A DNA stretch of 64,000 nucleotides from Escherichia coli 042 (GCF_000027125.1 NC_017626.1), one strand, 5' to 3'. Shown: positions 4,631 to 46,007, counted from the first letter of the stretch. Notes: generated from the sequence alone by a model not told the origin. Translations and numbers: made by a program.

Positions 4631-5949
4631 TTGGTCGCATATCGCGTTTTATGACGCGTTTTGTCAGCCGGTGGCTTCCCGATCCACTGATCTTTGCCAT
4701 GTTGCTGACATTGCTAACTTTCGTGATCGCGCTTTGGTTAACACCACAAACGCCGATCAGCATGGTGAAAATGTGGGGTGACGGTTTCTGGAACTTGCTG
4801 GCGTTTGGTATGCAGATGGCGCTTATCATCGTTACCGGTCATGCCCTTGCCAGCTCTGCTCCGGTAAAAAGTTTGCTGCGTACTGCCGCCTCCGCCGCAA
4901 AGACGCCCGTACAGGGCGTCATGCTGGTTACTTTCTTCGGTTCAGTCGCTTGTGTCATCAACTGGGGATTTGGTTTGGTTGTCGGCGCAATGTTTGCCCG
5001 TGAAGTCGCACGCCGAGTACCCGGTTCTGATTATCCGTTGCTCATTGCCTGCGCCTACATTGGTTTTCTCACCTGGGGTGGCGGTTTCTCTGGCTCAATG
5101 CCTCTGTTGGCTGCAACACCGGGCAACCCGGTTGAGCATATCGCCGGGCTGATCCCGGTGGGCGATACTCTGTTCAGTGGTTTTAACATTTTCATCACTG
5201 TGGCGTTGATTGTGGTGATGCCATTTATCACCCGCATGATGATGCCAAAACCGTCTGACGTGGTGAGTATCGATCCGAAACTACTCATGGAAGAGGCTGA
5301 TTTCCAAAAGCAGCTACCGAAAGATGCCCCACCATCCGAGCGACTGGAAGAAAGCCGCATTCTGACGTTGATCATCGGCGCACTCGGTATCGCTTACCTT
5401 GCGATGTACTTCAGCGAACATGCCTTCAACATCACCATCAATACCGTCAACCTGATGTTTATGATTGCGGGTCTGCTGCTACATAAAACGCCAATGGCTT
5501 ATATGCGTGCTATCAGCGCGGCAGCACGCAGTACTGCCGGTATTCTGGTGCAATTCCCCTTCTACGCTGGGATCCAACTGATGATGGAGCACTCCGGTCT
5601 GGGCGGACTCATTACCGAATTCTTCATCAATGTTGCGAACAAAGACACCTTCCCGGTAATGACCTTTTTTAGTTCTGCACTGATTAACTTCGCCGTTCCG
5701 TCTGGCGGCGGTCACTGGGTTATTCAGGGACCTTTCGTGATACCCGCAGCCCAGGCGCTGGGCGCTGATCTCGGTAAATCGGTAATGGCGATCGCCTACG
5801 GCGAGCAATGGATGAACATGGCACAACCATTCTGGGCGCTGCCAGCACTGGCAATCGCCGGACTCGGTGTCCGCGACATCATGGGCTATTGCATCACTGC
5901 CCTGCTCTTCTCCGGCGTCATTTTCGTCGTTGGTTTAACGCTGTTCTGA
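4627..5949 (+). CDS. atoE: Short-chain fatty acid transporter
   Basis: 440-aa polytopic membrane protein, ATGA overlap with atoA. Confidence 0.9.
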   Translation: MIGRISRFMTRFVSRWLPDPLIFAMLLTLLTFVIALWLTPQTPISMVKMWGDGFWNLLAFGMQMALIIVTGHALASSAPVKSLLRTAASAAKTPVQGVMLVTFFGSVACVINWGFGLVVGAMFAREVARRVPGSDYPLLIACAYIGFLTWGGGFSGSMPLLAATPGNPVEHIAGLIPVGDTLFSGFNIFITVALIVVMPFITRMMMPKPSDVVSIDPKLLMEEADFQKQLPKDAPPSERLEESRILTLIIGALGIAYLAMYFSEHAFNITINTVNLMFMIAGLLLHKTPMAYMRAISAAARSTAGILVQFPFYAGIQLMMEHSGLGGLITEFFINVANKDTFPVMTFFSSALINFAVPSGGGHWVIQGPFVIPAAQALGADLGKSVMAIAYGEQWMNMAQPFWALPALAIAGLGVRDIMGYCITALLFSGVIFVVGLTLF

Positions 5950-7237: not shown

Positions 7238-8014
7238 TCACCAGTCAAAACTTTTCACCAGCGTCAGCTCGCCAGCATTACGCATCGGTACAATAAATGT
7301 TTCCTGTTTCTCATTGACCGATCCTTCATCGGTGATCAGCGTCAGTTGGGCGGTCGTCAATTCCGTTTCGCTGCGTCCGCCATAGTAGTTGATATACACC
7401 TGATAACGTCCGTGAATCGGCGCTGGCATGGCGAAAATCTCGGGGCCGTACCCCGTCGTGACATCCATATCCAGTGCACCACTGTTTTTCAGCACGGTGT
7501 TACCGTACCAGGCGTGTTCGCCATCAGGTGTAACAACGTGAAGGTCGAGGTCGGTATTGTCCGTATCCCAGGAGAGAACCAGCCGTAAACGCGCGCGGAT
7601 CACTCCAGCGCCCGGCGTTGAGTAAAACTGCATTTTTTGTCGGCTTTGCCCATCTGGGCTGATGACCTGCACGCTGTTGCTGCCTTCAGTGAAAATATAA
7701 GGGCGTGCAAATGAACCATCGGATTCAATTCTCTGCGGCATACTGGCACCGTTGACCACCAGCCGGCCCTGCTGAACTTTACCCGCCGCAGCACAATTCT
7801 TTATTTTGCCGCGGATCTGCGCTGAGATATTTTGATCATCTGCCATGTTGACGGACGACGCCGGGTAATTGATCGATTGTGAAAAACTGGCATCTTCGCC
7901 CTCTGCCGGATGCCAGCCAGAGAGCGGTGCATCAATCTCGACTTCCTGCACACCTTCGCCATGGGCAACAGGCGAAAGCGCCACCAGTAACAACGGAAGA
8001 AAAATCTTTCGCAT
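7238..8014 (-). CDS. yfaP: YfaP (DUF2135 family), last gene of yfaA-yfaP operon
   Basis: 258-aa ORF with signal peptide, tight operon context. Confidence 0.85.
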   Translation of the reverse strand: MRKIFLPLLLVALSPVAHGEGVQEVEIDAPLSGWHPAEGEDASFSQSINYPASSVNMADDQNISAQIRGKIKNCAAAGKVQQGRLVVNGASMPQRIESDGSFARPYIFTEGSNSVQVISPDGQSRQKMQFYSTPGAGVIRARLRLVLSWDTDNTDLDLHVVTPDGEHAWYGNTVLKNSGALDMDVTTGYGPEIFAMPAPIHGRYQVYINYYGGRSETELTTAQLTLITDEGSVNEKQETFIVPMRNAGELTLVKSFDW

Positions 8015-43078: not shown

Positions 43079-44800
43079 GCCCTGAAGAACGTGGATCCCT
43101 GCTACGTTCAGGCTGTCGCCTGAATCATTTCGGTGGGTTCCTGCTTCAACGAGCGGCCTGACTGCACCATCTCTCCACAGGCAAGAACGGCGTGCCCCGC
43201 CGCTAAAATGTTACGAGCGCCATTTACATCGGCGTTCGCTGTATATCCACATACCTGGCATCTGAATTGACTTTGTGACAGGCGATTTTCTTTCGCAGTA
43301 TGACCACAGCACGCGCAACGCTGGCTTGTGTACGCTGGCGGAACAGCAAGCAACTGACCGCCACTCCAGAGCTGCTTGTACTCAAGCTGGCGGCGCATTT
43401 CATACCAGCCCTGATCCAGTATCGAACGGTTTAAACCTGATTTTGCCCGGACATTGCGCCCCGGCTGGCTGAGCGTACCCGCTGCTGACTTTGACATGTT
43501 GCTGACCTTCAAATCCTCAATGACTATCATTGCGTGGTTTTTGCTGACGGTCGTTGTGACTTTGTGAAGGTAGTCCCTGCGGATATTTGCGATACGGGAA
43601 TGCAGTCGCTGTATTTTGCGTTTCTGCTTCTGCCAGTTGTTGCTGAATTTGACCCTGCGGCTTAACTGTCGCTGAAGTCTCGCCAGCTTCTTCTGGTTTT
43701 TCTGAAAACTGTTTACAGGCTCAAAGACTGTGCCATCTGACAGCGTGGCGAGTTTAGCCACGCCAGCATCCAGCCCGACCATTGATGCTGAAGGGTGAAC
43801 CGGAGTTGATACTTCACTTTCTGTCTGAATACTGATGTACCACTTACCGCAGGACTGGCTGACAGTGACATTTTTTACAACACCCGTGACCTGACGGCTG
43901 TTCCGGTAGCGCATCCAGCCCAGTTTCGGCAGAAAAATACGGCTGTTTTCCTGATCGAGCTTAACGCCCTGCGGATAGCGGAATGCATCATTCTGTCCCC
44001 GCTTTTTGAATCGGGGAAAAGCAGCCCGATTCTGGAAGAAGTTTTTGTAAGCCCGCTCAAGGTCTTTCAGTGACTGTTGCAATGGCTGTGAGGGCGAATC
44101 TTTAAGCCATTGCGTTTCAGTGGCGTTTTTCCACTCAACCAGCCAGGAAGCCATTTTCCCGTAAGGGATGTATTTATTACCGGCCTCATGATTCTCATTC
44201 TGAAGCGCCAGAGCGCGATTGAAAACGAAACGACATGCGCCTGCGAAGCGCCTCATTTCACACTCCTGTTGACCACCTGGTCTTAACTGGAATTTAAATG
44301 CCTGTAATCGTTTCACAGGTCAAATGATACTTTGGTCTATGAAAAAAGAAACCGATATCCGGCGTGGAAGGCATTGTGTTTTCCTGATGCATGTTCACCT
44401 GGTCTTTGTCACCAAATACCGACGCCAGATTTTTGACCATGACGCGACAGAAAAACTACGCACTTACTTTTCAAATGTATGTGCTGATTTTGAAGCTGAA
44501 CTGGTTGAAATGGATGGCGAACCAGATCACGTCCATTTGTTAATTAACTATCCTCCCAAACTGGCGATATCCAGTCTGGTAAACAGCCTCAAAGGCGTAT
44601 CGGGTAGGTTACTGCGACGAGATCGACCAGATATTGCAGTCAGGTATTACTACAAAGGCGTTTTGTGGAGTCCTGGCTATTTTGCCAGTAGCTGCGGAGG
44701 TGCGCCAATATCCGTCATCCGCCAATACATTGAACAACAGCAAACACCTGGTCAGGTGGAAAACCGCGCCTTATATCCCCGCCCTGAAGGACGGGGTTTT
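43070..44800. mobile_element. IS200/IS605-family insertion sequence (divergent tnpA and tnpB); boundaries approximate
   Basis: Y1 (HUH) transposase plus TnpB ORFs; 14-bp near-identical motif CGCCCTGAAG[A/G]ACG in direct orientation at both ends (43078-43091 and 44780-44793), each within a hairpin. Confidence 0.7.
43108..44316 (-). CDS. tnpB: TnpB (OrfB) RuvC-like transposon-associated nuclease
   Basis: 402 aa; C-terminal zinc finger CACCGH...CQVCG and RuvC-like motifs typical of IS605 OrfB. Confidence 0.88.
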
Positions 44801-44929
44801 ACAGCGCACTGGATAAAGTCATGGACTCAACAACCTCAATCCAGCCATGCTCACTGGCGATGTCCTGGCCGTTTAACCAACGGCGCAGCATATTCAGTGC
44901 CATCATTGCGCACACTTCCTGACGGATAG
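44324..44929 (+). CDS. tnpA: IS200-type Y1 (HUH) transposase TnpA; ORF runs about 50 codons past the expected C-terminus
   Basis: HVHLL HUH motif and catalytic Tyr region (RQYIEQQ); no stop until 44929, overlapping the yfaY 3' end. Confidence 0.75.
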   Translation: MILWSMKKETDIRRGRHCVFLMHVHLVFVTKYRRQIFDHDATEKLRTYFSNVCADFEAELVEMDGEPDHVHLLINYPPKLAISSLVNSLKGVSGRLLRRDRPDIAVRYYYKGVLWSPGYFASSCGGAPISVIRQYIEQQQTPGQVENRALYPRPEGRGFTAHWIKSWTQQPQSSHAHWRCPGRLTNGAAYSVPSLRTLPDG

Positions 44930-46007
44930 CCAGGCTGTAGCGCGTAGTGCTGAAACGCACACGCAGAGCGAAAGTGCCGTCTGGCGTGGCTAGCGCAAAG
45001 TTGAGATGTTCGTTCTCGAAACCAGAAACAGCCAGTGCCAGCCCGGCAAAATGGTTGGCCCGCCGTTCTGTAATCCAGTGCGCAGTTTGCGCCAGGGTTT
45101 CCTCCTGTGAAGGAACCACTTCACACGCCAGCAATGGAGCACCTGCGCGAGAAAGTTGCAAAGCCAATAAACCACCGGTGAATTGCTCGCTCAACGTCAG
45201 GCTGAACTGGCGGTTTTGCAATTCGCGGCTGATCTGCGAGGGCAGTCCTTCGGTACCTTCGAAAATCACGCTCTGTCCGGCAACACGTTTAACGTCCAGC
45301 CACAGTTTTTCCATCGCCTGTTTCTCGCTTGCCGGTCCGGTGAGTTTCAGTTCGATAATCGGCATAGAAGAGCGATAGCCCATTGTTACCCCCGGCGGCA
45401 GTTGCAGGGTGTCCAGGCTTTGTGCCAGATCGCTTTCCGAACGACCAAATGTAGTCAAACGCAGACAAACCGGCGGCTGCGGTAAAGAAAAACGCTCGCG
45501 CAGGCGCGGCAGGATTTCGTGCTCGACCATCACCTTAAATTCTGACGGTACGCCGGGGGTAAAGAACATCAGGCAACGATTAAGCTGCACGGCAAAACCA
45601 CAGGCGGTGCCTACCGGGTTATTGATAAATTCAGCACTGGCAGGTAGCTCCGCTTGTTTACGGTTGCTCGGTGTCATTACTCGTCCACGTTCGTGGAAAT
45701 AGCGTTCCATCTCTTTGAGCCAGGCCTCATGCAGCACCAGGCCTTCACCTTTTGCTGTTGCAGCGGCGAGTGCGCTTAAATCATCACTGGTCGGCCCCAG
45801 CCCGCCGTTAACGATCAGCACATCGGCGTGCTGACTCCGTTCGCGAAGAATGGTCACTAAGTCATCAAGGTTATCTCCCACCGTATTGCGGCGAGATAAT
45901 GGCAACCCCTGATGAAAGAAAAAATCGGCCAGCCAGGCAGCGTTAGTGTCAACGATTTGCCCGTGTAACACTTCATCCCCGGTGGATAGCATTTCCACTT
46001 TTAACAT
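44799..46007 (-). CDS. yfaY: CinA-like protein YfaY
   Basis: 402 aa; CinA N-terminal domain (MLSTGDEVLHGQIVDTNAAWLA, VNGGLGPTSDD). Confidence 0.88.
   Translation of the reverse strand: MLKVEMLSTGDEVLHGQIVDTNAAWLADFFFHQGLPLSRRNTVGDNLDDLVTILRERSQHADVLIVNGGLGPTSDDLSALAAATAKGEGLVLHEAWLKEMERYFHERGRVMTPSNRKQAELPASAEFINNPVGTACGFAVQLNRCLMFFTPGVPSEFKVMVEHEILPRLRERFSLPQPPVCLRLTTFGRSESDLAQSLDTLQLPPGVTMGYRSSMPIIELKLTGPASEKQAMEKLWLDVKRVAGQSVIFEGTEGLPSQISRELQNRQFSLTLSEQFTGGLLALQLSRAGAPLLACEVVPSQEETLAQTAHWITERRANHFAGLALAVSGFENEHLNFALATPDGTFALRVRFSTTRYSLAIRQEVCAMMALNMLRRWLNGQDIASEHGWIEVVESMTLSSAL

Follow-up and report, generated by a model that had tools for sequence, protein, structure and literature searches.

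Loss of the tnpA stop codon as the probable origin of an over-long transposase reading frame in an IS609 copy of Escherichia coli 042

Introduction

The 64,000 nt stretch of the Escherichia coli 042 genome (NC_017626.1) analysed here, referred to as the window, contains an insertion sequence with a transposase reading frame, tnpA, that does not stop at the end of its recognizable domain, but runs on through a hairpin and into the 3' end of the convergent gene yfaY. The question raised by this locus is whether the extra codons are part of a genuine, longer type of transposase or whether the frame has lost its end, and if so, how. An initial annotation of the locus had put forward two readings, a junction artefact, in which the native stop is gone and the flank is read, and a C-terminally extended, possibly inactive transposase. 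Among the papers searched, none deals with the structure of the IS609 tnpA.

The tnpA reading frame and its neighbour tnpB

The frame at 44324–44929 (+) encodes 201 aa from its first ATG, or 196 aa from the ATG at 44339, which is where the relatives start. The presence of a 201 aa ORF with a Y1 domain ending at aa 139 is confirmed: Pfam Y1_Tnp covers aa 18–139 (E 4.9e-42), NCBIfam transpos_IS200 covers aa 13–138 (146.8 bits, with a cut-off of 55), and the solved Y1 transposases of IS608, ISDra2, and Sulfolobus align only to aa 6–140 of the 196 aa form. Both the HUH motif (DHVHLL) and the catalytic-Tyr motif (RQYIEQQ) are intact, and only V6M, R31K, and A47T distinguish this core from the intact 143 aa E. 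coli TnpA, WP_000604942.1. Based on the Pfam and NCBIfam matches and on relatives of 138 aa, the ancestral coding part of tnpA is the 138 codons at 44339–44752 (+), with the ATG at 44324 as an alternative upstream start.

An extension beyond this part, which the initial annotation had placed at 44774 and sized at about 50 codons, is indeed present, yet it is larger, at 58 codons past the ancestral stop; counted from 44753, it starts 21 nt further upstream. The other two observations made there also stand, as the hairpin at 44777–44796 is present and is crossed by the frame, and the overlap with the convergent yfaY, given as about 130 nt, is 131 nt (44799–44929). There is no evidence that this antisense overlap of tnpA and yfaY has a function.

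Divergent from tnpA is an intact tnpB of 402 aa (43108–44316, minus strand), encoding the InsQ/TnpB RNA-guided endonuclease, with the Pfam domains HTH_OrfB_IS605, OrfB_IS605, and Cas12f1-like_TNB, and annotated by PGAP as an intact CDS. The tnpB start (GTG 44316, minus strand) and the first tnpA ATG (44324, plus strand) are 7 nt apart, so that each promoter must lie inside the coding sequence of the other gene. The 3' end of tnpB and the adjoining right end are where TnpB guide RNAs are expected. A candidate omega/right-end RNA region there (43052–43181, minus strand) has only sub-threshold Rfam matches, to RAGATH-18 (29.5 bits, gathering 44.9) and HgcC (20.1 bits, gathering 50).

The ends of the IS609 copy and its target

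Flank alignments and the empty sites of K-12 define a complete IS609 element of the IS200/IS605 family, 1748 bp long, at 43065–44812 (minus strand), the 'top' strand of the transposon being the minus strand of the window. Its identity was judged against copies that include one labelled 'IS609 family' by PGAP and the insQ locus of K-12, and over 1745 nt it is 97.5–98.4% identical to the copies at six other loci, these being ydcO/ydcL (in K-12), yeaQ/DUF1869, yfeD/gltX, ytfB/TetR, yidH, and a DUF3251 site. Compared with the IS-free K-12 locus, homology ends at 43064 (K-12 locus position 5091) and restarts at 44812, with G44812 common to the IS609 end and the K-12 empty site. In the alignment of flanks, the sequence shared by the copies starts with TTGACATCC and finishes with GGCGCACCGG, directly after which there is ATAA at 7/7 sites. 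At yfeD/gltX, the empty site of K-12 has CAGC directly followed by ATAA, and the occupied and empty sites differ by the IS only, which means that the target is TTAT on the minus strand and that it is not duplicated. In the window this target (44813–44816, minus strand; ATAA on the plus strand) flanks the left end (LE), inside the last codons of the ancestral yfaY, and the element sits 3' of it.

The two ends carry subterminal hairpins, and both hairpins are intact. In the right end (RE; 43065–43110, minus strand), as defined by sequence and folds, the minus strand has the hairpin CCACGTTC-TTCA-GGGCGTGG (43094–43075), followed by the 10 nt AGGATGTCAA, which end in TCAA at 43065. The LE hairpin, CCCCGTCC-TTCA-GGGCGGGG (44777–44796, minus strand), was recognized from folds and is present in all IS609 copies; its arms read CCCCG (44777–44781) and CGGGG (44792–44796) on the plus strand, and its foot is 16 nt from the TTAT cleavage and target site. 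On the minus strand the order is TTAT, 16 nt, and LE hairpin, with RE hairpin and AGGATGTCAA at the far end. A loop/stem motif, CCCTGAAGRACGKGG, is common to the two hairpins and is on the same strand in both, with no more than these two matches in the window. There are therefore subterminal imperfect palindromes in the same orientation at both ends, without terminal inverted repeats, and every sequence-level defining feature of IS200/IS605 and of IS609 that was tested is present.

The LE hairpin has modest fold z-scores (-1.8 to -2.3 on the plus strand and -3.8 as RNA on the minus strand), but its conservation, in all IS609 copies and also in relatives that belong to other genera, shows it to be real. 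Folding energies favour the minus strand with RNA parameters (-26.2 vs -19.6 kcal/mol for the plus strand), while DNA parameters do not tell the strands apart (-8.4 vs -8.3 kcal/mol). Since the folds do not settle the strand, its assignment as the top strand is based on the TTAT/TCAA geometry and the orientation of tnpB. The hairpin is absent from the yfaX-yfaY region of K-12, a comparison that had been suggested by the initial annotation, and it thus belongs to the left end of the IS.

Two observations on the LE sequence itself may be added. The 8-mer TACAGCGC, found in the yfaV flank by RE (43053–43060), occurs again in the LE tip (44800–44807) in this copy only; other IS609 copies have TACGGCGC at 44800–44807, with A44803 and T44810 private to the window copy. 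This repetition may be due to chance. Unannotated 48 nt segments resembling LE (window 44770–44817) are present in ST131 and other strains, and these may be solo left-end remnants.

On the side of tnpA the element is complete to its last base, as it is in the seven further copies compared, which come from six other sites, so that nothing has been lost at the junction. This bears on the proposal that the IS was truncated on its yfaY side, or that a deletion took the native stop, and fused the frame to the flank. The location of the element inside two gene ends, its association with a 2.35 kb rhmD-yfaX deletion, and the PGAP label of 'missing C-terminus' would all fit such an event. However, the hairpin and target are kept at the tnpA-side end, the deletion is on the other side, at RE, about 60 nt within the element the position of the ancestral stop persists with one base different, and the same readthrough is seen at sites without any deletion. 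An artefact of the junction is therefore very unlikely, and the end alignments refute it. Of that part of the initial annotation, the loss of the native stop and the reading of the flank are borne out, while the artefact is not, given the complete IS end, the internal position of the substitution, and the presence of the same allele in most E. coli IS609.

The lost stop codon and its ancestral state

The codon concerned is at 44753–44755 (+), where alignment to relatives gives TAG as the ancestral codon and the window has CAG. This T-to-C substitution is at codon 144 of the 201 aa ORF, about 60 nt inside the element, and the stop directly after ...YIEQQQTPG, which would give the native 138 or 143 aa, is not found in the window copy. 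A single transition of TAG to CAG has removed the tnpA stop and, with no back-up stop in the following 60 nt of LE DNA, the frame is open through the LE hairpin; it leaves the element at 44812 and, antisense to yfaY, crosses the 3' end of this gene until it meets a chance TAG at 44927. Stop-loss readthrough in a structurally complete IS609 is very probably the explanation for the over-long tnpA.

The mutated base is within a short palindrome, CACCTG-GT-CAGGTG, that can be read from the sequence at 44745–44758 (+). Quasi-palindrome 'correction' was considered as a cause of recurrent T-to-C change and is unsupported, as both alleles have the same 5 bp stem with the base in the loop, and CAG and TAG give equivalent DNA folds (-3.6 vs -4.1 kcal/mol).

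That TAG is the older state is seen from the relatives. In a homologue search covering 5.8 billion proteins, close relatives with 83–88% identity were found in Salmonella, Klebsiella, Proteus, Photorhabdus, Yersinia, Morganella, Xenorhabdus, and others. Their TnpA is 138 aa, or 143 or 146 aa where an upstream start is used, and ends ...YIEQQQTP(G/S/D), while most E. coli homologues of at least 95% identity are 152–254 aa. The comparison of reference lengths called for by the initial annotation thus comes out at 138–146 aa for close relatives, not about 200 aa. In a codon-level DNA alignment, Salmonella, Klebsiella, and Proteus have TAG at the exact position of the CAG in the window, and the DNA downstream of the stop position (GAAAACCGCGCCTTATATCCCCGCCCTGAAGGACGGGG) is conserved as DNA. 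An IS609 variant of 97.6% identity in the Logan assemblies carries TAG, as do some complete E. coli genomes, among which the yeaQ-site copy of strain 503025 encodes the intact 143 aa WP_000604942.1.

When one genome per species was scanned, a 30-mer around the codon gave no matches, and a conserved 20-mer of LE gave 25 loci. Among the latter there is TAG in every relative with tnpA beside LE, in Serratia, Xenorhabdus, Pantoea, Proteus, Erwinia, Photorhabdus, an Enterobacteriaceae MAG, and a Proteus-like contig labelled Streptomyces, and CAG only in another Escherichia species. Altogether, relatives in at least 10 genera stop at TAG. With TAG in the outgroups and CAG confined to Escherichia, the ancestral codon is TAG, and the stop loss to CAG is derived and specific to Escherichia.

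Besides many Enterobacterales, the 20-mer of the LE core, AAAACCGCGCCTTATATCCC, is present in contigs with the labels Streptomyces, Clostridiales, Bacillota, and Janthinobacterium. There are seven copies of the LE core in Janthinobacterium, with a large insertion in the hairpin. The element on the Streptomyces contig is nearly identical to that of Proteus, and this may be contamination.

A one-base error of sequencing or assembly would produce the same difference, and beyond its single-base nature nothing speaks for one. The exact CAG 51-mer occurs in 3964 independent complete-genome records, and the sequence across the yfaY junction is the same in about 180 records. The probability of such an error is negligible.

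Composition of the C-terminal tail

The 58 extra codons are made up of 20 codons of non-coding LE DNA and 38 codons of chance sequence antisense to yfaY. The IS-encoded part, QVENRALYPRPEGRGFTAHW (codons 144–163; 44753–44812, plus strand), is translated non-coding DNA of LE that is conserved as DNA across genera, and its 19–20 residues are identical in all CAG copies. The flank-encoded part (codons 164–201; 44813–44929, plus strand) is a translation antisense to yfaY that ends with the TAG at 44927–44929. The chance of 38 flank codons without a stop, (61/64)^38, is about 0.16, which is unremarkable.

At other sites the same frame is 168 aa (ydcL), 180 aa (gltX), 204 aa (TetR), and more than 230 aa (yeaQ) in length, and the site determines how far into the flank it stops, from 6 to more than 68 codons; clusters in the protein databases show yet other tails. 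The tails of the IS609 copies differ because the flanks at their insertion sites differ. The conserved ATAA of the target does supply a TAA, at the end of the IS, but only in the +1 frame (ORF 44634–44816, plus strand). There is a frameshifted database variant of 166 aa that ends at this target-supplied TAA, and in an ENA assembly the copy at the yfaY site is frameshifted in LE, so that its tail crosses yfaY in another frame to give 199 aa.

A subfamily of genuinely extended Y1 transposases of about 200 aa might seem to be indicated by the many database proteins, 160–254 aa in length, that share their first 162 residues. These long proteins share the IS-encoded residues only, however, and then diverge wholly according to the flank; an extension conserved among homologues regardless of location is not seen, the tails past the IS end being unrelated. 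The TAG stop in at least 10 genera also argues against such a subfamily, as does the tail itself, which has no match among Pfam families, NCBIfam families, or solved structures. It is the part of lowest confidence in an AlphaFold model that is poor overall (pLDDT 43.5), and it has no secondary structure there. The 58-codon extension is not a domain, and a genuine subfamily of this kind is extremely improbable; this second proposal of the initial annotation, taken as a genuine type of transposase, does not hold, with site-specific tails and with relatives that stop at TAG. The extended product, if it is made at all, would consist of the Y1 core and an unstructured junk tail with no selected function.

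In the RefSeq annotation, both the element and the pseudogene status of tnpA are already recorded, PGAP giving the window tnpA as a pseudogene 'missing C-terminus', and likewise the tnpA of four other CAG copies examined. The over-long tnpA is probably a case of ordinary gene decay.

Deletion between yfaV and yfaY

Compared with K-12, IS609 replaces 2.35 kb at this locus, made up of rhmD, yfaX, and parts of the genes on either side, 21 codons from the start of yfaV and two from the end of yfaY. What remains of yfaV (rhmT; 41837–43064, minus strand) lacks its first 21 codons and is directly adjoined by RE of the IS at the end of K-12 homology, 43064; PGAP restarts the gene inside IS609. On the other side, yfaY (44799–46007, minus strand) translates to 402 aa, with its last three codons and stop (TAA 44801–44799) coming from the left end of the IS, so that the protein ends ...VESMTLSSAL*, where that of K-12 ends ...VESMTLSV*.

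Both end points of the deletion in K-12 are ATAA/TTAT (K-12 locus positions 5092–5095 and 7440–7443), one of the two TTATs being retained beside LE. With TTAT at both ends, the deletion looks to be the result of target-specific events and not a random one. It may have come about by recombination between two IS609 insertions, or by TnpA joining a cleaved end to a second TTAT. The intermediates expected of such routes are not seen: in 5426 genomes there is no IS at yfaY with yfaX intact, nor is there an IS609 inside yfaV. We know of no description of a deletion from TTAT to TTAT next to the right end for the IS200/IS605 family. The TTAT-bounded loss of rhmD-yfaX, which are rhamnonate genes, is found in about 3% of complete E. 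coli genomes and is a small, IS-caused metabolic difference between strains.

Allele frequency, selection, and activity

Among complete genomes of IS609-bearing E. coli, the exact CAG 51-mer is in 3964 of 4364 matching records and the exact TAG 51-mer in 828 of 4331. The yfaY junction is in about 180 records, from the 5426 genomes, all of which have the exact CAG version, and none of the records searched has this junction with TAG. Orthologous insertions are polymorphic for the two alleles, the yeaQ and gltX junctions being identical in TAG and CAG strains. CAG is present at at least five of the insertion sites examined as DNA, and at more if judged by the distinct protein tails. Its presence at many sites, including the lineage-restricted yfaY site where there is no TAG version, would suggest that CAG elements may have transposed and that the tail may be tolerated.

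In nine copies there are four-gamete violations around the allele with sites 65–330 nt away, as seen from column patterns, and both recurrent mutation and gene conversion may account for the distribution in this sample. The same nine copies have 24 nonsynonymous and 8 synonymous differences in tnpA (pN/pS about 0.9), as well as three nonsense mutations and two frameshifts, while tnpB has 31 and 34 (pN/pS about 0.26) with all ORFs intact; this is a crude count on copies that recombine. To judge from these sequences, tnpA looks to be evolving almost neutrally and tnpB looks to be constrained. The stop loss would appear to be one of several degenerative changes in a tnpA that is drifting while tnpB is kept, and it is plausible that the tnpA copy in the window is inactive, although its core is only three residues away from the intact protein and CAG copies occupy many sites.

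That CAG predominates, occupies many sites, and is shared with a second Escherichia species could, together with the intact catalytic core, also be taken to mean that the stop-less allele is functional or regulatory, the tail being tolerated or the missing stop lowering the level of TnpA, for example through a non-stop mRNA ending at the LE hairpin that is cleared by tmRNA, which would favour the persistence of tnpB-bearing copies. It is in keeping with a tolerated tail that TnpA-His6 of IS608 is active in vitro (PMC3201880), the tag being assumed from its name to be C-terminal. Against this, the LE hairpin was not called terminator-like in a consensus scan, having too long a loop and only four T's, nonsense and frameshift mutations have accumulated in tnpA at a neutral-looking rate, and drift, hitch-hiking, or gene conversion among copies can explain the allele frequency. 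A functional or regulatory role of this kind is quite unlikely. There is a slim chance, on a related view, that the stop-less allele is not dead, with CAG IS609 having kept on transposing with a TnpA whose last 6–70 residues are dictated by the site or whose level is set by the missing stop, the same TnpA perhaps having made the rhmD-yfaX deletion between TTATs by RE.

No new insertions of IS609 were seen in K-12 mutation-accumulation lines (PMC5009759). As the ydcO/ydcL copy in K-12 has an internal tnpA stop at codon 96, this result says nothing about the CAG allele of the window.

The proteins of about 200 aa that gene callers report as IS609 'transposases', in many clusters with thousands of members, are the product of readthrough after a change of one base had removed the stop, with flank sequence as their C-termini. 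This is useful for annotation and carries little weight for biology at large, though it does document an E. coli IS with a drifting tnpA and a conserved RNA-guided nuclease gene, tnpB. The general picture is that TnpB outlives TnpA, and IS609 fits this.

Comparison with known systems

The nearest comparison is with IS609 of K-12 (ydcO/ydcL, insQ), which has the 97.5–98.4% DNA identity given above for the set of copies, the same divergent layout, the hairpins, the TTAT, and the CAG. It differs from the window copy in its insertion site, and hence in its tail, and in its internal stop at codon 96. IS609 copies and relatives with an intact tnpA (WP_000604942.1, and the 138 aa proteins of Salmonella, Klebsiella, Proteus, and Photorhabdus) have the same core, with 83–98% identity, and share the LE DNA downstream, but they keep TAG after ...QQQTPG where the window reads 58 codons on.

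IS608 of Helicobacter pylori is the mechanistic model of the IS200/IS605 family. Like IS608, IS609 has a Y1 HUH TnpA, its subterminal hairpins are on one strand, and it inserts 3' of a tetranucleotide that is not duplicated. The plan of IS608, with the target beside LE and TCAA 10 nt 3' of the RE hairpin (PMC3201880), is also the layout of IS609. The two elements differ in target (TTAT in IS609, TTAC in IS608), in the distance of the LE cleavage site from the foot of the hairpin (16 vs 19 nt), and in the arrangement of the genes, tnpA being divergent from tnpB in IS609; the proteins are distantly related (E 5e-20).

A transposase frame that reaches or passes the end of its element also brings to mind IS870 of Agrobacterium, in which the stop codon of ORF1 is said to be supplied by the CTAG target, as Fournier and colleagues reportedly described in 1993. 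The likeness is superficial only. In IS870 the target makes the stop at a fixed place, whereas in the window tnpA misses the TAA of ATAA, which is in another frame, and comes to a chance stop 115 nt into the flank; a target-completed in-frame stop at every insertion is not a property of IS609. The readthrough in IS609 is a derived mutation and not, as in IS870, part of the design of the family.
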